A DNA stretch of 64,000 nucleotides from an uncultured Pseudomonadota bacterium. GTDB taxonomy: Bacteria; Vulcanimicrobiota; Vulcanimicrobiia; Eremiobacterales; Eremiobacteraceae. Both the position numbers and the translations under genes were made by a program. Below, one piece after another: positions 18,852 to 29,473 of the stretch. Each line of letters begins with the position of its first letter. Within the stretch, counting starts at the first letter, position 1. The DNA is taken from assembly GCA_963736005.1 (NCBI GenBank), contig CAVTNB010000001.1, positions 1,792,001-1,856,000 of the forward strand, read 5' to 3'. The notes under the pieces were generated by a model. That model was given only the letters and a program-made list of their open reading frames with translations. It had not been told where the DNA came from and made no database searches.

Positions 18852-20945
18852 TTAATCTTGCTTTGTGGGTTTTGCGCGCAAGTATCGATCGAACCAGTCA
18901 ACCCAGCGACGATAGACGTCTTCGCTGGACACAGGATCACCCGGAAAGTGCTCGCTCGTTACATACGCAATGAATTGCACCGGCACACCGCGGTCTTTCA
19001 GCGCATGGTAGAGCTCGTACGAGTGCGTGATGGGAACCGTCGTGTCATAGATGCTCGCCATGATCAAGGTTGGAGTCGTGATATTCCATGCGTAGGTTAA
19101 AGGCGACTGGTTCACATACGCTTGATAGGCTGACTTTGACGACCACATCGCGCGTCCGTAAAAGAAGCGATCGAGGACGTTATAGTTGCTGATGGCGTAG
19201 TCGGGCACCAAATCAGTCGGCGCTGCGCCCGTGACGGCCGCCTTCCAGCGGTGATCCTGCGTGATGAGCCAAGCGGTCATGAGGCCGCCATAGGACCAAC
19301 CCGAGACACCGATCCTCGCCTGATCCACAATGCCGATTCGTTCGACGGCAGCGATGCCAGCGAGGATATCGCGCCCCGGACCCGCGACCGTATCTCCGAA
19401 AATTGCCGTTTCAAAAGCATTGCCCGCATTATCGCTGCCGCGATAGTTTGGTTCGAACACAAGGTAACCGTGCGCCGCAAACAGCTGCGTGAGCCCAGGG
19501 TAGTCTGTGTCGAACGCTTCCTGCGACGCATACTGCGGCCAGCCGTGAATCTGAAGGACCAGTGGGTACTTCTTGCCCGCAACAAAATCAGGCGGGTACG
19601 TCAGCACGCCATTTTCGCGAAAGCCATCTTGAGTCCACGTGATTTCTTGCACGGCGCCGAGGTGAAGCGAGGAGAAAAAGCTATTGTAGTCCGTGAGCCG
19701 CCGTACAGGCGCTGAGCCGGAGGTCAACAAGTAGAGCTCGGTCGGCCGTTGCGGCCCGGAAGCGAGAAACGCGATCGCACCGTTTTGGCTGACGCTCGCG
19801 CCACTTGCGCTCAAGTTTCCAAGGTCGAGGCGCTGCGTACTGCCATCGAGGCTGACCAGCCACATTCCCTCTCCCGTGCCATCATGCGCGAGGATGAGTA
19901 ACGAGAGATTGTTCGGCATCCAGCGCACAACCCAAGGTGAGCGGTCGAGTTTGCGCGTCACATCGAGCCCGTTTGGGCCGCGCGCTAAAGTGTCGGTAAC
20001 GAAGATGGCGCTGGCGTTGATGGCGTTGCCGGCGCTCGGATACCAGTACGCGAGCTTGGATCCGTCCGGCGAGGTATCACAACCCGCCTCGAGTCCGTCG
20101 TGGCTTGTGACCTTCTCGATGCGACTGCTGTCGTTTGTGGGTGCAGAAAGGTCGAGGACGCTTAAGGTCGCCTGATCCGCGTGCGCCATATACGCGTCGG
20201 GCATTCGCGTGAACGCGATGTGACGATCATCCGGGTACCAGCAAAAGAAGTTATTGGGCATGTGCTGGGGTTCGATGAGCGAGTTGAGATACGGCTGCGA
20301 GAACCCGAAGCTCCCCGAGGGGAGGCTAAAAGATCCGCTGGTCAGACGCTGGGATTGGGGATGCGCCGCCACGCTCACCAGCCACAAATGCGAGGGAAGC
20401 GGCGCGGCGGTCGTCAGATAGTCATTGTCGCCCACGACAAAATTGGTTCGGAATTTGGCAGCGCCGCTTCCACGTGCTGGCGGATCCGAACGGACGAATG
20501 CGATCGCCTTGCCATCGGGCCGCCACGCGAAATACTCAACGTCTTGCGACCCCCAGGTGAGCTGATGCAGTACGCCGCCCGTCGCCGAACTCGTGTAGAG
20601 TTGCATGACCCCGGCGGATTTGGCAGCCAAAAATGCAAGCGCCGTTCCATCCGGCGACCAGCGCACGCTCTCGATCTCATCGAAAGGCAGCGGAAGCGAG
20701 TGCCGCACCCCCGCCGCGACATCGACGATGTCGACATGGATGGAAACGGCATTGTGCTCGAAGTCGCTGACCCCCACGAGGAGAGCAACGTGCGAGCCGT
20801 CGGGGGAGATTTGCGGATCCGCCAAGATGACTTCGCGACGCAGATCCTGTAAGGACAGCATCCGCGCTTGCGTGGGCGCGACCGCGAGAAAAAGAAAAGC
20901 CGCCGCCAAAGCGGTGGCGCACAGCGCGAAGGTCCTCGAAAACAT
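18852..20945 (-). CDS. Secreted S9 family peptidase (prolyl oligopeptidase/acylaminoacyl-peptidase-like)
   Basis: ISPDG propeller blades, YPLVLQIHG.P, PNYRGS, GWSYGG nucleophile, D..VP, H. Confidence 0.92.
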   Translation of the reverse strand: MFSRTFALCATALAAAFLFLAVAPTQARMLSLQDLRREVILADPQISPDGSHVALLVGVSDFEHNAVSIHVDIVDVAAGVRHSLPLPFDEIESVRWSPDGTALAFLAAKSAGVMQLYTSSATGGVLHQLTWGSQDVEYFAWRPDGKAIAFVRSDPPARGSGAAKFRTNFVVGDNDYLTTAAPLPSHLWLVSVAAHPQSQRLTSGSFSLPSGSFGFSQPYLNSLIEPQHMPNNFFCWYPDDRHIAFTRMPDAYMAHADQATLSVLDLSAPTNDSSRIEKVTSHDGLEAGCDTSPDGSKLAYWYPSAGNAINASAIFVTDTLARGPNGLDVTRKLDRSPWVVRWMPNNLSLLILAHDGTGEGMWLVSLDGSTQRLDLGNLSASGASVSQNGAIAFLASGPQRPTELYLLTSGSAPVRRLTDYNSFFSSLHLGAVQEITWTQDGFRENGVLTYPPDFVAGKKYPLVLQIHGWPQYASQEAFDTDYPGLTQLFAAHGYLVFEPNYRGSDNAGNAFETAIFGDTVAGPGRDILAGIAAVERIGIVDQARIGVSGWSYGGLMTAWLITQDHRWKAAVTGAAPTDLVPDYAISNYNVLDRFFYGRAMWSSKSAYQAYVNQSPLTYAWNITTPTLIMASIYDTTVPITHSYELYHALKDRGVPVQFIAYVTSEHFPGDPVSSEDVYRRWVDWFDRYLRAKPTKQD

Positions 20946-20971
20946 CGATTGCCACTACGGTCGGCGAGCGG

Positions 20972-21376
20972 CTAGCGCCTGCAACAGACCTCGAATCGAT
21001 TGCCGTGCGGATCCTCAAAGAACACCGCGTAGTATGGCTGCGGGTACGATCGGCAGATCTGTGGACCTTCGATCCGGTGCGCGCCCGCCTGGCGCATCCT
21101 CGCGGCAATCCTGTACACTTCTTTGCGCGACGCAGCGCCGAAGGCAATGCGCGAGAGGCTGGGCGTACTTCGCCGAGCTTGCACGATCCAAAAAAAAGGC
21201 ATGCTCGGGTCCTCGTGATAGTACGAGCGGCTGCGCGTACCGCGGTGGATCTTGCGGAAGCCGAGCGCCGGCATCAACGCGTCGTAGAAACGGGCTACCG
21301 AAGCCACGTCGCGGACGCGAAAGTCAATGTGGTCGTAACAGCCTCCGGGATCCGGATTCAAATGCGTACGCCCCAA
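20972..21376 (-). CDS. VOC/glyoxalase family protein
   Basis: DHI..RV.D.....FY...LGF, YYAVFFEDPHGNRFEV; start uncertain. Confidence 0.88.
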   Translation of the reverse strand: MGRTHLNPDPGGCYDHIDFRVRDVASVARFYDALMPALGFRKIHRGTRSRSYYHEDPSMPFFWIVQARRSTPSLSRIAFGAASRKEVYRIAARMRQAGAHRIEGPQICRSYPQPYYAVFFEDPHGNRFEVCCRR

Positions 21377-21544
21377 CCGCCGAACAACTCACTTGCGACT
21401 CCACGAGGGATATGCACGATGGTCGTTCGAGACTGAGAGAGGAGTTCGCCCTCGCCCTCGCTGACGATCGCAGCTTTTTCAACTAACATCATTTTTGACT
21501 CGACTTTCCGCCCAAACTATGGCGATTGCGTGTAACCTGCCATC

Positions 21545-21659: not shown

Positions 21660-22250
21660 ATGACACCAGTATCCCAAGCCGAACAACCAGAAACAGGGTC
21701 TCGAGAGCCAGCCCCCGGCGACTTGGCGGTCGTGCAAGCCTTCATCAATACCCGGGAACTCAACGCTCGCGGGGCGCTCGTGTTCGACGAACTTTCAAGC
21801 CCTAAAGCCCTCGAGCACTGGTTGTCCGGGCGCAAACTCCTCAGGGACCGGCGGCACTTGAGCCAGACCGACGTCACCCATGCCATTTCGGTACGAGAGG
21901 CCCTGCGAGATCTGCTCGCAGCCAATGAAGGCGAAAAGGTGGGCAAGGATGCGGTGGAGACCTTGAGCCGGGCTGCTCGCAGCGCGCAGTTGCTCGTCGA
22001 TTTTAAACCTGACGGCTCGGCAGAGCTGCAGCCTGCGGCGTCGGGCGTCGACGCGGCCTTAGGCGAACTCCTGGCGATCACGGTTCGATCGATGTTGGAC
22101 GGTTCGTGGCAGCGGATGAAAGCGTGCCACGACGACTCCTGCCGCTGGGCGTTTTACGACCGGTCGAAGAATAGTTCGAGCAACTGGTGCTCGATGCGCG
22201 TGTGCGGGAACCGCGCAAAGGCACGTAAGTTTCGCAAGCGACACGCGTAG
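21660..22250 (+). CDS. CGNR zinc-finger / ABATE domain putative regulator
   Basis: F.NT N-terminal motif; R.K.C....C.WAFYDRSKN....WCSM..CGNR.K. Confidence 0.93.
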   Translation: MTPVSQAEQPETGSREPAPGDLAVVQAFINTRELNARGALVFDELSSPKALEHWLSGRKLLRDRRHLSQTDVTHAISVREALRDLLAANEGEKVGKDAVETLSRAARSAQLLVDFKPDGSAELQPAASGVDAALGELLAITVRSMLDGSWQRMKACHDDSCRWAFYDRSKNSSSNWCSMRVCGNRAKARKFRKRHA

Positions 22251-23512: not shown

Positions 23513-23551
23513 AAATAAAGAAGGGGTGCTGCTCTTTCGCAACGCCCCCTT
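23513..23551 (-). terminator. Probable intrinsic terminator downstream of the micropeptide
   Basis: Minus strand aagggggcgttgc-gaaaga-gcagcacccctt followed by ctttattt. Confidence 0.6.
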
Positions 23552-23585
23552 TGGACATCTGTTCTAACCCGAGAAAAACTCGCGG

Positions 23586-23624
23586 TTATTTCTTTTTGGC
23601 CTTCTTCGCCTTTTTCTTTGCCAC
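23586..23624 (-). CDS. Lys/Ala-rich micropeptide MAKKKAKKAKKK
   Basis: GTG GCA AAG AAA AAG GCG AAG AAG GCC AAA AAG AAA TAA with GGAGGTGA 10 nt upstream; below the ORF-track cut-off. Confidence 0.65.
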   Translation of the reverse strand: MAKKKAKKAKKK

Positions 23625-23967
23625 GATGTACTGGTCACCTCCCCCCTGGACTTTCGGTGCGCGCGGAGCGTTGCTGTACGCCTCTTGTTGCATGTACCTG
23701 CCGCTGCGGAGCCTCGGCAGTTATCGCGCGGTTCCGAAGGGTGCGGGACTCACGTGCGAGTTCCTCGCGCGGAAGTTCTGTTAAGTAAGCACTTCCCCTC
23801 TGTTCATCGGCAGTCGGGGGAAAAAACTTCAGGCGCAAAGCAGTCGAGAATTTTCTCGAAGCGAGCGTCATGTGCTCCGCAGCATGCAAATGCGGTGCGA
23901 AGTTGACGACTGCGCGACGCCAAACAAGGGCAGCGGCGCAAGTTTTGACGAAGCAATCACCGACAGC

Positions 23968-25218
23968 ATGAACACAACGCGGCGGGTCGTGGTGACGGGA
24001 ATGGGCGCCGTGACTCCACTCGGCAATTCCGTACCTGAGTTCTGGAAGAATGTGGTGCGTGGGCGTAGTGGGGTCGGTCACATCACCTTATTTGATGCCT
24101 CCAACCTCGCAACGCGCTTTGCGGCGGAGGTGCGCGATTTCGATCCAGCGGCGATCATCGGCAAAAAAGACGCCCGCAAGATGGACCGCTTTGCCCAGTT
24201 CGCCTGGGTTGCCGCACAGGAAGCCGTCGCCGATTCGGGGTTGGAAATTACCGACGCGAACCGCGACTCCATCGGCGTCATCATGGGATCGGGTATCGGC
24301 GGCATCACGACCATCGAGCAGCAAACCAAGGTGATGAACGAACAGGGTCCGGATCGGCTGTCGCCTTTTTTTATTCCGATGCTCATCAGCAATATCGCAC
24401 CGGGTCTCATCTCGATGAAGCTCGGGGTCCGAGGTCCGACCCAAACCGCCGTCTCAGCCTGCGCCTCGTCGAACAACGCGATCGGCGACTCAATGCGGAT
24501 CATTCAACACGGTGAATCAGACGTGATCATCTGCGGCGGTTCTGAGGCCCCCATCACACCGTTAGCCGTCGGCGGATTTTGCGCGATGCGGGCGCTCTCC
24601 ACAAGAAATGACACCCCCGCGTCTGCCAGCCGGCCCTTCGATCGGACGCGCGACGGTTTTGTCATTGGGGAGGGCGGCGGCGCGTTTGTCCTCGAGGAGC
24701 TCAATCATGCGCGCACCCGCGGAGCTCGCATATACGCAGAACTGCTTGGCTACGGTCAATCTTCGGATGCGTATCATATGGTGGCGCCCGATCCGCAGGC
24801 GCGGGGTGTCAAACTTGCGATGATCAGAGCGTTGCGCGACGCGGCTATCGAGCCGACGGATGTGAACTACATCAACGCGCACGCCACGTCGACCGACCTC
24901 GGGGATGCGGCGGAAACACAAGCGGTCCATGCGGTGTTCGGCGAGCACGCGAAGACCATTCCGGTCAGTTCGAACAAATCGATGTTCGGTCACGCTTTGG
25001 GTGCTTCCGGAGCACTGGAGGGCATTTGCACCGTGCTTGCCCTGCACGAGGGCATCGTTCCACCGACCATCAACTACGAATTCGTCGATCCTGCCTGCGA
25101 TCTCGATTGCGTCCCCAATGTGGCGCGACGCGACGAACTCAACATCGCGGTTTCGAACTCATTTGGCTTCGGCGGGCACAACGCCGTCCTCGTGTTCCGC
25201 AGGTTTTCCGAAAACTAG
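23968..25218 (+). CDS. fabF: Beta-ketoacyl-ACP synthase II
   Basis: RRVVVTGMG, SACAS, DGFVIGEG, NAHATST, GHALGA, NSFGFGGHN; start trimmed to ATG 23968. Confidence 0.96.
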   Translation: MNTTRRVVVTGMGAVTPLGNSVPEFWKNVVRGRSGVGHITLFDASNLATRFAAEVRDFDPAAIIGKKDARKMDRFAQFAWVAAQEAVADSGLEITDANRDSIGVIMGSGIGGITTIEQQTKVMNEQGPDRLSPFFIPMLISNIAPGLISMKLGVRGPTQTAVSACASSNNAIGDSMRIIQHGESDVIICGGSEAPITPLAVGGFCAMRALSTRNDTPASASRPFDRTRDGFVIGEGGGAFVLEELNHARTRGARIYAELLGYGQSSDAYHMVAPDPQARGVKLAMIRALRDAAIEPTDVNYINAHATSTDLGDAAETQAVHAVFGEHAKTIPVSSNKSMFGHALGASGALEGICTVLALHEGIVPPTINYEFVDPACDLDCVPNVARRDELNIAVSNSFGFGGHNAVLVFRRFSEN

Positions 25219-25221
25219 CGC

Positions 25222-25917
25222 GTGTCGGAGGGGCTGGCCCGCAAGCGGGCACTGCGTGGCTTGGCGCGCAAGGTCGGTTTGCCCCCAAGCGCCGATCTTG
25301 ACGTGCTCGACATGGCTCTTACGCATGACTCGTACGCATCGGAGCACCCGAGGCAGGCGCACTCGAACGAGCGGCTCGAGTTCCTCGGTGACGCGGTGTT
25401 AGGCGCGGTTGTTGCGGGCGAGCTCTACGCGCGCCACCCGCAGCGTTCCGAAGGCCAACTTTCCCGCATGCGCGCCTCGCTTGTGTCGCGAGCCGCTTTG
25501 GCGCGCTCGGCCGAGGCGCTCGATCTCGGTGCGTTCCTGCTGCTCGGTCGCGGAGAGAGCGCCGCCGGAGGCGCGCACCGGCCCTCGGTGCTTGCCGACG
25601 CGTTTGAAGCGCTGGTGGGGGCGATTTTCCACATCGGCGGCATGCACGCGGCGCAAACGTTTGTAAAACGCTCCCACCTCGCGCACGCGACATCGAGCGA
25701 AACGATCGACCCCAAGACGGCGCTGCAAGAATATGCCCAAGCAAGGTTTAAGAAGGCACCGCACTACGCGGTCACCGCACAAAGTGGGCCGCCCCATGCG
25801 CGGACCTTTACGGTTGCGGTGGACGTTGCCGGTCAAACCTTGGGGACGGGCAGCGGCACCACGAAGAAGCAAGCACAGACCGACGCAGCGCGGGAGGCGT
25901 TAGCCCATCTACCTTAA
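25222..25917 (+). CDS. rnc: Ribonuclease III
   Basis: NERLEFLGDAVL, ADAFEALVGA, dsRBD DPKTALQE. Confidence 0.96.
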   Translation: MSEGLARKRALRGLARKVGLPPSADLDVLDMALTHDSYASEHPRQAHSNERLEFLGDAVLGAVVAGELYARHPQRSEGQLSRMRASLVSRAALARSAEALDLGAFLLLGRGESAAGGAHRPSVLADAFEALVGAIFHIGGMHAAQTFVKRSHLAHATSSETIDPKTALQEYAQARFKKAPHYAVTAQSGPPHARTFTVAVDVAGQTLGTGSGTTKKQAQTDAAREALAHLP

Positions 25918-28900
25918 GAGTATCGATCTCTTTGGTTTCAAGACGTTTGCCGAGCGCACGCGTCTCGAGTTCGCACCCGGCATCGCTGCCATCGTTGGTC
26001 CCAATGGGTCAGGCAAGTCGAATTTCGTGGATGCCGTGCGCTGGGTCCTCGGCGAGCAGAGCGCGCGTCAGTTGCGCGGCGCTCGCATGGACGACGTCAT
26101 CTTTGCGGGCAACGCTTCGCGCCGACCCCTCGGACTCGCCGAGGTGACGCTCACCTTCGACAACTCTGACGGCGCGCTCTCGGCGCCGTTTAGCGAGATT
26201 GCGATTACGCGGCGCGCGTACCGAACGGGCGAGAGCGAATTCTTCATCAATAAGACAGCGGTGCGACTGCGGGATATCACGGACATGCTCCTGGGCACGG
26301 GTCTCGCCGCCGAACTCGCCGCGATCGTGTCTCAAGGCGAGATCGACGCCATTCTCTCCGCCAAGCCGGAAGCGCGGCGTGAACTTTTCGAAGGGGTCGC
26401 CGGCACCGCGCGCTATCGAGCGCGCAAGCGCGAGGCTCAGCGCCGCATCGAGCAGACCGCGGCGAACGCATTGCGTGTGAACGATTTGCTCACCGAACTT
26501 GAAAAACAGCTGCCGGCGATCGAGCAGCAAGTACGACGCGCCAAGCGCTATCAGAAAGTGCAGCAACAGCTCCGCGACCTCGAGATTTTCTCTTACGTTC
26601 ACAAAGCCAAGGAACGCCGTGAGGAGCGCGCGCGAATCAGTCAAGTCCTGGGAGTCGACGAAAAAGAGGCAGCGAAGGAAGCCCGGACCCACGCCGAACT
26701 TGCATCTGCCGTCAATCGCGCGCGCGACGAAGAGTACCAAGCTTCGTTGGCCCTGGACGATCGAAACGCCGCGCACGCGAGGAGCGCTTCGCAGCTCCAG
26801 ACGCATGCATCGGCCCATGCGGCAATGCAAGCCAAAGCAACCGAGCTGACGCGCGCGTCTGAAGCGCTGGAGCGCGAGGCCGACGCCGGCGCGCAAGCCG
26901 TCGCGCAAGCGGATACCCGGCTTTCCAATGCCATAGAAGATTTGCGGCGCAGCCGCGAGCTGCGCGATGAAGCGCTCACGCTCGCAGAATCGGCGGCTGC
27001 GGAGGAAGCAGAGGAGACAGCGCACTGGGAACGCGCTTATGCGGCGCTCCGCGCGGTCGAGGATTCTCGTCTGCGTGCTAGCGCCAAGTCCACCGAAAGC
27101 AATTCTGCGGCTGCTGCTGCCCAAGCAGAGGTCGAACGGTTAGCAGACGCGCTATCGCGCCTCGATGCGGACTTGCAAACAGCGCACGCGGCGTTGGACG
27201 GGTGCGGCGAGCGTTCCAAACGGGCCAACGCGGAGGTTGAAAGACTTGCCGCAGACGCGGGCAAGCTCGACCAAAAACTGCAGACGGTGGCGGCGCAAGC
27301 AAACCGGGCCATAGAAGCAGTGGAACAGCAAAGGGCCGTGCAGCAAGCCGCGCACGCAAGCCTGACGCAAATAAACGCCAAGCTCGACGCGCTAACACAA
27401 TTCGTTGCCGACCTTTCAGGGGCGCCGGCTGGCACTCGCCACCTGCTCGACGCAAAGGCAGCTAGCCGCCTGGCAGGCGTGATTGGAACGGTGGCGAGCC
27501 AAATCACAGTTGACGAGCGCCATGCCACCGCAATCGACGCATTGCTCGGCGCACGAGCGCATGACGTCATCGTGCGCACGCTGGCCGATGCGAAAGCCGC
27601 GATGCTGATCCTCAAAGAAAAACAGGCTGGCCGAGCGACGATCATCGTGCTCGAGGCGTTATCGGACGGGCGATTTTCCAATCGCCCGCTACAGGAGCCA
27701 AAAGCGGCGGGCAAGAGTGGAGATATCGGGCGAGCGTCGGAGCTCGTTCGCTGCGATGCATCCGTCAAGCCCGCCATCGAGCAAATCCTCGGAGACTCCT
27801 TTGTGGTCGCAAACTTGGAGAGCGCGTTTGATTGCGCGAAGGAAGCGCCCCATGCTGCGTTTGCAACCCCCGAGGGAGACGTCATCCACGGCAGTGTCAT
27901 CACAAGCGGCAGTGGAACCGGCGTGATGAGTGCACAGGCCGCGTCCGAAACCCTCGAGTCTGAGCGAGCAATCCAATCGAAGGCGGCGCGCGAGGCGGAT
28001 GCAGCGCTCGATCGAGCGACCCAGACGGCGACCGCGGGCCAAAGTCAGTTCGAACGCATCAAAGCAGATATTGTTGAACTCACCCTGCGCCAACACGATG
28101 CACAAGCGTTGTGCTCTCAATTAGAGCGCGAGCGTGAAGCCCTCGAGCAGCAGCTCTCTGTGCTGCGCACCGGACGCGGCGAAGTCGTCCAGCGGTCAGC
28201 CCAGGTTAAGGAATCCGCCGCTCGCCATCGTGACACGGCCCGAGAACTTGCCGGCCAGCTTCAGACGCTCGAATCGCAGCGCAGTCAAGCGCTGTCGGCA
28301 TCGGACGAACTCTCCAAGCGCCTGGGCGCCGTGCGCGCCAAGCACCGCAGCGCTGCCGCACAGGCCGCCGCCTTGGTCGAACGCGTTGCGCAACTGGGTG
28401 ATGATGTCGAATTGGCCCGCGCGGACATAGAACGCGCCAAAGGGCAGCGCAAAGAGCGCGTCACCTCGCTCGCACGGATGCGAGATGAATTGGAGCAAAG
28501 CCGCGCCGACGTGCAGCGTCTTGCGGCGCTCAAAGCGGACGCTGAACAGGCGGTTGCAGAGGTTGCGCTCCGCTTAGGCGAGCTTCGCGAGCACCGTGAT
28601 GCGGCGTTGCACCGGACGCGCGAACTCGAAGAAACCTACGCGCAAGAAGAGCAGCGCGGGCGCGAGCAGTCGCTTGAATTGGAACGCCAGCGCATCCGCC
28701 TAGCTGAGATCGATGCGGAGCTCGCTCTCCTGCAGCAAACCTTTTCGCAAAATCCGGCTTCGCAGCAGGAGTGCGATGATGTTGCAGCTCGCTACGCTGA
28801 CTTCGAAGGCGACGTTGACGCGCAGGTTCGCCGTTTGCGAGAGGAGATGCTGCGGCTAGGCAATGTCAACCTGAATGCGCTCGAAGACCGGGCGGCGACG

Positions 28901-29473
28901 CTCGAACGCTGCGAGTTCCTCCGAGAACAACTGCGCGACCTTGAGGCAGCTCGCGCGAACATCGTCGCAAGCATCGCTGAGATGGATGCGGAATCACTCC
29001 GCCAGTTCAACGAGACGTTTGCCAAAGTATCCGTCGCTTTCTCGGAGACGTTCACCCGCCTCTTCAATGGCGGGAGTGCGAAGATGTGGGTCTGCGAAGC
29101 AGAGGACCCGACGGAAGCGGGAATCGAGATCTCGGCGCAGCCGCCGGGCAAAAAGATGCAGAATTTGAATCTGCTCTCGGGTGGCGAACGCGCGCTCACC
29201 GCCGTCGCGCTCATCTTTGCGACGCTCCAAGTCAGGCCGAGTCCATTTTACATTTTCGACGAAATCGATGCAGCCCTGGATGAAGCCAACATCGGCCGAT
29301 TCGGCGTGCAGCTTGCCGATCTGGCCGGAAACGGTCGCTCGCAAATCATCATCATCACCCATAACAAGGCGACGATGACGCTGGTCGACCGGATGTATGG
29401 CGTGACGATGAGTGAGCCGGGCATTTCCAATATTCTTTCCCTATCGCTGGAGCGTGCGGGTGCCGCCGGATAA
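25907..29473 (+). CDS. smc: Chromosome segregation protein SMC
   Basis: Frame extends 40 codons upstream of the ORF call: IYLKSIDLFGFKTF...VGPNGSGKSN; hinge, coiled coils, LSGGE, FDEIDAALD; apparent ATC start. Confidence 0.95.
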   Translation: MYLKSIDLFGFKTFAERTRLEFAPGIAAIVGPNGSGKSNFVDAVRWVLGEQSARQLRGARMDDVIFAGNASRRPLGLAEVTLTFDNSDGALSAPFSEIAITRRAYRTGESEFFINKTAVRLRDITDMLLGTGLAAELAAIVSQGEIDAILSAKPEARRELFEGVAGTARYRARKREAQRRIEQTAANALRVNDLLTELEKQLPAIEQQVRRAKRYQKVQQQLRDLEIFSYVHKAKERREERARISQVLGVDEKEAAKEARTHAELASAVNRARDEEYQASLALDDRNAAHARSASQLQTHASAHAAMQAKATELTRASEALEREADAGAQAVAQADTRLSNAIEDLRRSRELRDEALTLAESAAAEEAEETAHWERAYAALRAVEDSRLRASAKSTESNSAAAAAQAEVERLADALSRLDADLQTAHAALDGCGERSKRANAEVERLAADAGKLDQKLQTVAAQANRAIEAVEQQRAVQQAAHASLTQINAKLDALTQFVADLSGAPAGTRHLLDAKAASRLAGVIGTVASQITVDERHATAIDALLGARAHDVIVRTLADAKAAMLILKEKQAGRATIIVLEALSDGRFSNRPLQEPKAAGKSGDIGRASELVRCDASVKPAIEQILGDSFVVANLESAFDCAKEAPHAAFATPEGDVIHGSVITSGSGTGVMSAQAASETLESERAIQSKAAREADAALDRATQTATAGQSQFERIKADIVELTLRQHDAQALCSQLEREREALEQQLSVLRTGRGEVVQRSAQVKESAARHRDTARELAGQLQTLESQRSQALSASDELSKRLGAVRAKHRSAAAQAAALVERVAQLGDDVELARADIERAKGQRKERVTSLARMRDELEQSRADVQRLAALKADAEQAVAEVALRLGELREHRDAALHRTRELEETYAQEEQRGREQSLELERQRIRLAEIDAELALLQQTFSQNPASQQECDDVAARYADFEGDVDAQVRRLREEMLRLGNVNLNALEDRAATLERCEFLREQLRDLEAARANIVASIAEMDAESLRQFNETFAKVSVAFSETFTRLFNGGSAKMWVCEAEDPTEAGIEISAQPPGKKMQNLNLLSGGERALTAVALIFATLQVRPSPFYIFDEIDAALDEANIGRFGVQLADLAGNGRSQIIIITHNKATMTLVDRMYGVTMSEPGISNILSLSLERAGAAG

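Follow-up and report, generated by a model that had tools for sequence, protein, structure and literature searches.

A conserved polylysine micro-ORF with a structured leader beside fabF in an uncultured Eremiobacteraceae genome: a candidate stand-alone micro-gene

Background

Can an open reading frame (ORF) of twelve codons, eight of them for lysine, be a gene in its own right, or does it belong to the leader of the gene that follows it? The question is raised by a stretch of 64,000 nucleotides (nt) from an uncultured bacterium of the Eremiobacteraceae (contig CAVTNB010000001.1, positions 1,792,001 to 1,856,000; the whole stretch is called the window here), in which a 498-nt spacer between divergent genes is mostly filled by a polylysine micro-gene unit on the minus strand (23831-23511). 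The spacer is flanked by fabF on the plus strand (ATG at 23971) and by a gene for a Cys/Met-family pyridoxal phosphate (PLP) enzyme on the minus strand (23472-22285). After comparison with related genomes we consider it somewhat probable that the locus is a self-contained, translationally regulated micro-gene for a polycation that resembles a histone H1 tail, and not the leader of its neighbour. Four lines of comparison support this: the unit and its parts are conserved, the ORF has a coding signature, the helices of the leader covary, and the peptide belongs to a family that extends across the class.

The assembly that contains the window measures 2.84 Mb in 6 contigs, has a G+C content of 58.6% and is 84% complete, and the related contigs used for comparison are all metagenome-assembled. 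A search of public sequencing runs for expression data listed 20, all of DNA type. Conservation, alignment and model counts include the unpublished genomes G008, G011, G013, G271 and G402, which contribute loci L006, L011, L035, L043, L054, L063, L066, L072, L149 and L150; no conclusion depends solely on these genomes.

Read along the minus strand, the unit begins with TGAAGTTT, 12 nt and GCCGATGA, followed by hairpin P1, a CGCGCG segment, hairpin P2, the tract CACCCTTCGG, a second CGCGCG and GATAAC. Hairpin P3 with its CUCCGCA loop, a variable linker, hairpin P4 (GGCGU-ACAGCA-ACGCU), a further CGCGCG and CCGAAAG come next, and the unit is completed by a G-run that leads into the Shine-Dalgarno (SD) sequence GGAGGTGA, 10 nt, GTG, eleven codons, TAA, a hairpin that starts in the stop codon, and a terminator. 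An earlier reading of the window, made from its letters without database searches (the sequence-only reading), had pointed to an SD sequence, a GTG ORF, three leader stems, a hairpin, a terminator and a promoter-like block here, and all of them are present on the minus strand.

The micro-ORF and its relatives

The micro-ORF (23624-23586) is a GTG followed by eleven further codons and TAA, and would encode MAKKKAKKAKKK; its SD sequence GGAGGTGA (23642-23635) lies 10 nt before the GTG at 23624. The ORF is kept in all twenty related loci that were fetched, each with its SD sequence (GGGAGGTGAC), start (GTG or ATG) and stop, and this conservation was one of the checks suggested by the sequence-only reading. 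The GGAGGTGAC portion of the SD sequence is invariant in all 39 aligned sequences. The predicted peptides of these twenty loci are 12, 14, 16, 17 or 19 amino acids (aa) long, every change of length being in frame, and three genomes of a further genus have a more diverged 16-aa version. Among the 19 distinct DNA versions of this gene (copy A, to distinguish it from the paralogue described below) the start is ATG seven times and GTG twelve times and the stop is TAA in 19 of 19, while the residues after the initial Met comprise 180 Lys, 69 Ala, 13 Thr and 14 others, with all four Ala codons in use. The triplets that do not encode Lys are nearly all GCN and ACN with a free third base, and variable columns number 13, 12 and 36 of 87 at codon positions 1, 2 and 3, respectively, so that the third position varies about three times as often. 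The micro-ORF is thus, as judged by comparison, a gene rather than a chance frame, because SD, start and stop are conserved, insertions and deletions stay in frame, variation concentrates at the third position, and a second paralogue exists. That the frame is coding sequence had been proposed from its synonymous codon variation, and the in-frame length changes, the restriction of the start to ATG or GTG and the constant TAA agree with the proposal.

Two other frames were considered and set aside. The sequence-only reading had allowed for a 35-aa form starting at an in-frame ATG at 23693; this ATG exists, 23 codons upstream within the variable linker between P3 and P4, but just 3 of 49 distinct sequences, each of them from the window's own genus, retain it. 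A frame starting from a GTG inside the SD sequence, which gives Arg-rich peptides in a few loci, has no preceding SD sequence and is not conserved.

The 2.84 Mb of the window's own genome contain three ORFs of 8-40 aa with at least 45% Lys, only two of which are preceded by an SD sequence; both begin MAKKK, and they are the present micro-ORF and a paralogue, copy B. Nowhere in this genome is there a frame of at least 30 aa with 10 Lys in any 30 residues. The two micro-ORFs are the only Lys-dense coding sequences in the genome. Gene callers discard genes of 12-30 codons, and the expectation that the locus would be invisible to standard annotation was borne out.

The spacer DNA of copy A has BLAST matches in 22 of the 24 other genomes searched within the family and in none of 16 from two sister families. 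A strict core pattern occurs in 23 of 29 other family genomes, and none of 371 genomes from 20 further families of the phylum has it. Copy B encodes MAKKKKAAKKTKKKK on the minus strand of contig 1 of the same genome, outside the window (1668110-1668063; about 1764-1811 of locus L056), immediately behind an xdhC/coxE-type cluster. Its leader is short and contains an SD hairpin, it has its own terminator, and its versions are 13-30 aa long. By BLAST it is present in 17 of 18 family genomes, among them those of a genus without copy A, and in none of 12 sister-family genomes. Nine distinct peptides are known for copy A (12-19 aa) and eighteen for copy B (13-30 aa). A looser pattern (ATGGC, three Lys codons, a gap and two Lys codons) was applied to 51 sister-family genomes, 16 of which gave a match. 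Eight of these sixteen have a 16-23-aa Lys-rich ORF after an SD sequence of the GGGGGTGA type, with its own leader and terminator, and four others have 86-92-aa proteins of Lys/Ala/Thr/Arg repeats that start MA[AV]KKK (L142, L143, L146 and L153). The same pattern found no such micro-gene in 41 genomes of another class, where it matched only the N-termini of ordinary proteins or chance ORFs without an SD sequence. The genes next to copy B and to the sister-family micro-genes are unrelated or convergent. Within one class, then, this type of peptide stands behind three unrelated leaders, those of copy A, copy B and the sister family; the covariance model of the copy-A leader (see below) matches neither of the other two (best E value 0.21). 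These comparisons suggest that the micro-ORF belongs to an unannotated family of 12-30-residue polylysine peptides present across the class, whose role we can only propose. Our literature searches, mostly of titles and abstracts, found no description of such micro-genes or of RNA elements in Eremiobacterota.

We note that at locus L156 (genome G037) two polylysine genes of 18-19 aa stand in tandem about 290 nt apart, each with its own leader, and have near-identical terminators.

Such a unit might also be a non-coding regulatory RNA in which the purine-rich AAR tract is the site for a protein or target (for example the (ARN)n-binding distal face of Hfq) and the ORF is incidental, or, in a milder form, a dual-function small RNA (sRNA). 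At about 300 nt from promoter to terminator the unit resembles an sRNA gene in size and in its ends; the genome encodes both Hfq and CsrA, so that a protein-bound purine tract is conceivable; and a triplet purine repeat could alter its length in threes whether translated or not. The spacing of SD and start is long as well, the GGAGG core lying 13 nt from the start codon, a distance seen in 3 of 153 long ORFs with GGAGG in a genome where the peak is at 4-9 nt. SgrS/SgrT, RNAIII/hld and Spot 42/SpfP are promoter-to-terminator units of sRNA size with a very short ORF, and the micro-gene is like them in both respects; unlike in those sRNAs, its conservation centres on the SD sequence, the ORF and the leader fold, and no target pairing region was identified. 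An incidental ORF also sits poorly with the near restriction of the non-Lys triplets to GCN and ACN with a free third base, with an invariant SD sequence, an ATG or GTG start and an unchanging TAA, with the recurrence of one type of peptide after three unrelated leaders, and with the 86-92-aa proteins that share its N-terminus. We regard a non-coding RNA as rather improbable.

Promoter-like block and terminator

The upstream end of the unit has a -35-like element, TGAAGTTT (23831-23824, minus strand), that agrees with the consensus TAAAGTTT at 7 of 8 positions, and 12 nt after it a -10-like element, GCCGATGA (23811-23804). The consensus of promoters for sigma28 (FliA/WhiG/SigD) is TAAA(GTTT), about 11-12 nt, and GCCGATAA. 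Of 49 distinct sequences, 39 have CCGATR upstream, mostly at a distance of 159-166 nt from the SD sequence, and 31 have a -35-like T[AGC]Ann-T that precedes the -10 block by 11-13 nt; one relative has TAAAGTTT, 11 nt and GCCGATGA. The window's own genome encodes a FliA/WhiG sigma factor (TIGR02479, 266.7 bits against a cut-off of 189.6), and 33 of the 37 class genomes have one that scores over this cut-off. FlhA is present in the own genome, and flagellin was not found in this 84%-complete assembly. With the block conserved and a sigma factor of this type encoded, the possible sigma28-type promoter of the sequence-only reading holds as a candidate promoter whose sequence fits the pattern.

A relaxed sigma28-like motif has five matches in the own genome, two of which are intergenic, one at the micro-gene and one upstream of pilM. 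The latter (contig 1, 228848-228875, plus strand; L049) consists of TAACATTG, 12 nt and GCCGATGT, and lies between a Crp-family regulator gene and pilM. A third match, at the 5' end of a TonB-receptor-like ORF, is uninformative. In the closest relative (genome G002, locus L002) a FliA-like gene (contig 3, 284226-284882) contains two in-frame TAA codons and scores under the cut-off, and fabF reads as two overlapping ORFs; these may be assembly errors or real decay.

The downstream end of the unit has two hairpins. The first starts in the stop codon (UAACCGCGAG/CUCGGGUUA, 23588-23565, minus strand); of 40 distinct sequences, 36 have a minimum free energy (MFE) here that is lower than the shuffle mean by 2 kcal/mol or more and 27 have the stop codon paired, and the stem sequences vary between clades. 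The second is a putative intrinsic terminator, AAAGGGGGCGUUGC/GCAGCACCCCUU with a U-rich tail (23552-23511, minus strand), which has the expected GC-rich stem, U tract and compensatory changes: among 19 sequences two pairs of its stem covary, one as CG in 9, UA in 6 and UG in 4, the other as UA in 10, CG in 8 and UG in 1. It is among the best-conserved parts of the unit, its CCCCTTCTTTA being nearly invariant. A simple promoter and terminator scan returned 0 sites, against 1.4 terminator-like sites expected in shuffles, and missed this terminator because the stem has an internal mismatch; folding, like the covariation, supports it. The sequence-only reading had called the locus stand-alone, and the comparison argues for this, because the unit has its own conserved promoter-like block and terminator and because its paralogues elsewhere have unrelated neighbours.

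A short Lys-rich ORF followed by a hairpin and a terminator also brings attenuation of the his or trp type to mind, in which the speed of the ribosome on the eight Lys codons (8 of 12) would decide whether the terminator at 23552-23511 forms, making the micro-ORF a lysine-sensing leader peptide that controls the Cys/Met PLP gene 40 nt downstream. The hisL, trpL, pheL and mgtL leader peptides are similar in having 12-20 codons rich in one amino acid before a terminator and a same-strand gene. In 15 of the 20 loci the micro-ORF is followed by the PLP gene in the same direction, and in 18 of the 20 it is preceded by fabF; this linkage speaks for an association, yet equals what synteny within one family gives. 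The downstream enzyme belongs to Cys/Met metabolism, not to that of lysine, and in one genus of the family four loci have other, unassigned genes downstream in place of the PLP gene. No conserved antiterminator was seen in single folds or in the alignment, in which alternative pairings of the 3' region were not the object of a dedicated search; the stop-codon hairpin and the terminator are each self-contained. The long structured part of the micro-gene lies upstream of its ORF, unlike in attenuation leaders, where it is around or after the ORF, and copy B and the sister-family genes stand alone, beside unrelated or convergent neighbours and with their own terminators. Attenuation is in our estimation very improbable, and the Cys/Met gene is probably not controlled by the micro-ORF.

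The leader RNA

The leader preceding the ORF is about 175 nt long. RNAalifold gave a poor global fold (-29.3 kcal/mol) for the whole alignment of 382 columns, and therefore a structure was written by hand for the 39 aligned core sequences and a covariance model was built from it. Among 74 loci searched, 44 of them metagenome contigs found by pattern, the model matched 66; those missed are three unrelated chance pattern hits (L105, L121 and L132), L110, and all four copy-B loci. No family of Rfam 15 matched the leader at E values up to 10, and the best match of that search (19.9 bits against a gathering threshold of 88, E value 0.4) falls inside the PLP gene.

All helices lie on the minus strand, and the pair counts that follow are from 46 distinct rows. 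P1 (GGAAGT/ACTTCC, 23796-23771) is a 5' hairpin of the MFE fold that is outside the covariance model, and relatives have a 5' hairpin of other sequence at its position. P2 (GGA-A-CTC/GAG-TCC, 23764-23746) is paired in 68.2% of cells, a low value because its register differs between clades, and five of its six pairs are changed on both sides. The remaining helices form a predicted four-way junction (23740-23651), found both by covariation and in MFE folds, in which P5 and P6 enclose P3 and P4. P5 (23740-23734 with 23657-23651) is paired in 98.5% of cells, with three of six pairs changed on both sides, and P6 (CGCGCG/CGCGCG, 23730-23725 with 23665-23660) in 85.7%, again with three of six. P3 (CTGCCG/CGGCAG, 23720-23698) is paired in 77.5% of cells with four of six pairs so changed, and the CTCCGC motif of its CUCCGCA loop is kept in all clades but g3. 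P4 (23682-23667) is the most conserved block of the leader, with many invariant columns; it is paired in 98.7% of cells and none of its five pairs is changed on both sides. The same is true of the four pairs of a hairpin in the SD spacer, paired in 98.3% of cells.

Taken as a whole, the leader structure has 86.8% of its cells paired, a share that falls to 36-47% if the partners are slid, and the covariation score is 0.198 against 0.133 in shuffles, a value reached by 0 of 500. When diverse members were folded singly, all 11 MFE structures contained P6, P3 and P4; P5 closes the junction in 10 of them, and in the window's own sequence a pairing with the G-run does so. The native strands of P2, P3, P5 and P6 beat swapped strands in every case (0 of 2000 permutations each), P2 for example with -5.89 against -4.40 kcal/mol. 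The sequence-only reading had described a structured leader and left its covariation in relatives to be examined; its three named stems are all within the covarying fold. The leader is thus modelled as a covarying four-way junction and makes a new candidate cis-regulatory RNA.

The leader contains three mutually complementary CGCGCG-type segments (23766-23771, 23725-23730 and 23660-23665), of which the first co-varies with the third nearly as well as the second does.

A possible Shine-Dalgarno switch

The pyrimidine tract CACCCTTCGG (23743-23734, minus strand) holds both the 5' strand of P5 and an anti-SD sequence (CCUUC/CCUCC) complementary to GGAGG. In a scan of all column pairs CACC:GGUG and CCUUC:GGAGG rank highest, beside the UUCG:CGAA of P5, and because tract:SD pairing ranks beside P5, the tract CACCCUYCGG can, by prediction, pair either with CCGRAAG (P5) or with the SD sequence. 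The mean predicted unpaired probability of GGAGG is 0.30, the remainder going to the spacer hairpin and to other partners. In copy B the SD sequence is within a hairpin in 16 of 16 folds, with a mean unpaired probability of 0.21. On these models translation may be controlled by SD occlusion in both paralogues, and a switch, including its direction and its signal, can be suggested.

The loop of the copy-B SD hairpin carries CUCCGYAG (CTCCGYAG in DNA), a motif that is also in the P3 loop of copy A, and the octamer CUCCGCAG stands in a hairpin loop of both otherwise unrelated paralogue leaders (23704-23714 in the window, and in copy-B leaders). This loop may have a common trans-acting partner. 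A CsrA site in the copy-B loop was considered and rejected, since its GGA is not conserved, one position alternating between G and A.

A folded leader beside the SD sequence with a competing SD-occluding pairing, the latter proposed here from modelling, recalls the T4 gene 32 operator, ribosomal-protein leaders, the M-box and RNA thermometers. As with these translational operators and leaders that sense cations, the occluded fold of the micro-gene leader could be stabilised by its product or by a cation; this leader differs from them in matching no Rfam family.

Comparison with known basic proteins

The closest parallel is Hc2 (hctB; PF07382), which like the micropeptides is a Lys/Ala-rich, repeat-built polycation of variable length. 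In Chlamydia trachomatis, hctB and tsp are reported as the sigma28 targets (PMC12282069), and the size of Hc2 is reported to vary through lysine-rich pentamers (PMC2848022). As hctB is a sigma28-dependent late gene, so a sigma28-like block precedes the micro-gene. Hc2 has 165-237 aa, against 12-30 aa for the micropeptides. The Pfam profile has no HC2 match in the window's own genome, a test for which the 12-aa peptide itself is too short, and a 92-aa sister-family relative reaches 27.8 bits with PF07382, for which the cut-off is 40. Because the micropeptides fail the Pfam HC2 score, their likeness to an H1 tail is claimed only as a resemblance, and by analogy they probably work like such a tail. 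A protein-atlas comparison gave, at 0.93-0.94, only unnamed clusters of 31-40 aa with low recognition, and the nearest named cluster, at 0.85 and with HC2 on 17% of its members, is a lead only. We know of no counterpart to the long four-way-junction leader.

Repeats rich in Ala, Lys and Pro that act by charge, as is proposed for the micropeptide, are also found in AlgP of Pseudomonas and in the tails of HupB and HupS, and HupS in Streptomyces reportedly depends on whiG-class genes. These are tails, or long proteins with folded partner domains, whereas the repeat of the micropeptide is the whole product. AlgP is reported to be linked to the spacing of polyphosphate granules (PMC9239181).

The micropeptide has its extreme basicity and very small size in common with the tiny ribosomal proteins eL41, bS22, bL37 and bTHX, and might be a lineage-specific counterpart of these that fills a groove of the ribosomal RNA (rRNA), its leader being an autoregulatory site that mimics rRNA; a structured leader beside the SD sequence does resemble cases of ribosomal-protein autoregulation. 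The proteins named have fixed lengths and conserved sequences. The micropeptide family is of low complexity and drifts in length and sequence between 12 and 30 aa, unlike proteins held in place by rRNA, has two or three paralogues with different leaders, and is preceded by a sigma28-type block unlike the promoter of a core ribosomal gene. A ribosomal role seems to us quite improbable.

Weighing the reading as a stand-alone gene

Several observations weigh against reading the locus as a self-contained, regulated gene, in addition to the same-strand PLP gene, the purine tract with its triplet repeats, and the long SD spacing given above. Nine g5-like sequences are without the promoter block (a tenth, L108, is cut short at its 5' end). 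The number of leader pairs changed on both sides, 15 against 12.2 in shuffles and reached by 28 of 500, is weaker than the covariation score; with related sequences and an alignment that was itself fitted to the model, the pair figures lean towards the structure, from which the single-sequence folds and the strand-swap check are independent. The CGCGCG-type segment at 23771-23766 co-varies with the 3' strand of P6 (0.0005 of 2000 permutations), so an alternative fold is possible, and the true fold of the leader may be different, switching or pseudoknotted. Pairing of SD and anti-SD is unable to covary because the SD sequence is invariant, and the thermodynamic ensemble gives the anti-SD pairing a probability of 0.04 on average. 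Micropeptides of 20-30 aa match no Pfam family, and no HC2 even at E values up to 10. Finally, transcription from the promoter-like block, translation into a peptide, the direction and signal of the switch and the target of the peptide are what we infer from the comparison.

Neighbouring genes

The other neighbours in the window are ordinary by Pfam: an ABATE/CGNR zinc-finger regulator (21660-22250), RNase III (25222-25917) and SMC (26027-29473), all on the plus strand, and a prolyl-oligopeptidase-family protein on the minus strand (18852-20945). The ORF at 20605-21486 has no Pfam match.

Proposed mechanism and conclusions

If the locus is the stand-alone micro-gene that we favour, a FliA/WhiG (sigma28)-type promoter would start an RNA of about 300 nt, of which the 5' leader of about 175 nt would fold into two 5' hairpins and the four-way junction of P5, P6, P3 and P4. 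A strong SD sequence and GTG would then direct synthesis of the 12-residue Lys/Ala peptide, and the stop-codon hairpin and intrinsic terminator would close the unit. The peptide would be a very short polycation like an H1 tail, binding DNA, RNA or polyphosphate by charge with no need for a fixed sequence, and the leader would set its amount: with CACCCUYCGG held within the junction the SD sequence would be freer, and with the tract paired to the G-run and GGAGG the ribosome would be blocked. A signal dependent on folding may tune translation in this way, whether free polycation, another cation, temperature or a factor that binds the CUCCGCAG loop.

Free polylysine is a strong stabiliser of compact RNA folds, and one can imagine, as an unlikely extension of the model, that the leader senses its own product, free polylysine binding the junction, locking the tract onto the G-run and SD sequence and so holding the level of unbound polycation. 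The locus would then be a charge-homeostasis module driven by a sigma28-type factor for a motile, late or dormant state, and one lineage's form of a phylum-wide, hidden class of polylysine micro-genes, each of which has evolved a leader of its own.

A gene so tiny would persist throughout one class of an uncultured phylum, with two or three copies in a genome and with as much regulatory sequence at each copy as a normal gene has, here in a leader about ten times the coding length. The leader is a new candidate cis-regulatory RNA with no Rfam match and a testable layout of SD, anti-SD and anti-anti-SD sequences, and the sigma28-type promoter, if it is one, would be an unexpected parallel to the sigma28-driven hctB of Chlamydia. 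If the peptide is made, it would be among the shortest stand-alone bacterial gene products with such depth of conservation, and would extend the H1-like polycations down to the bare tail.

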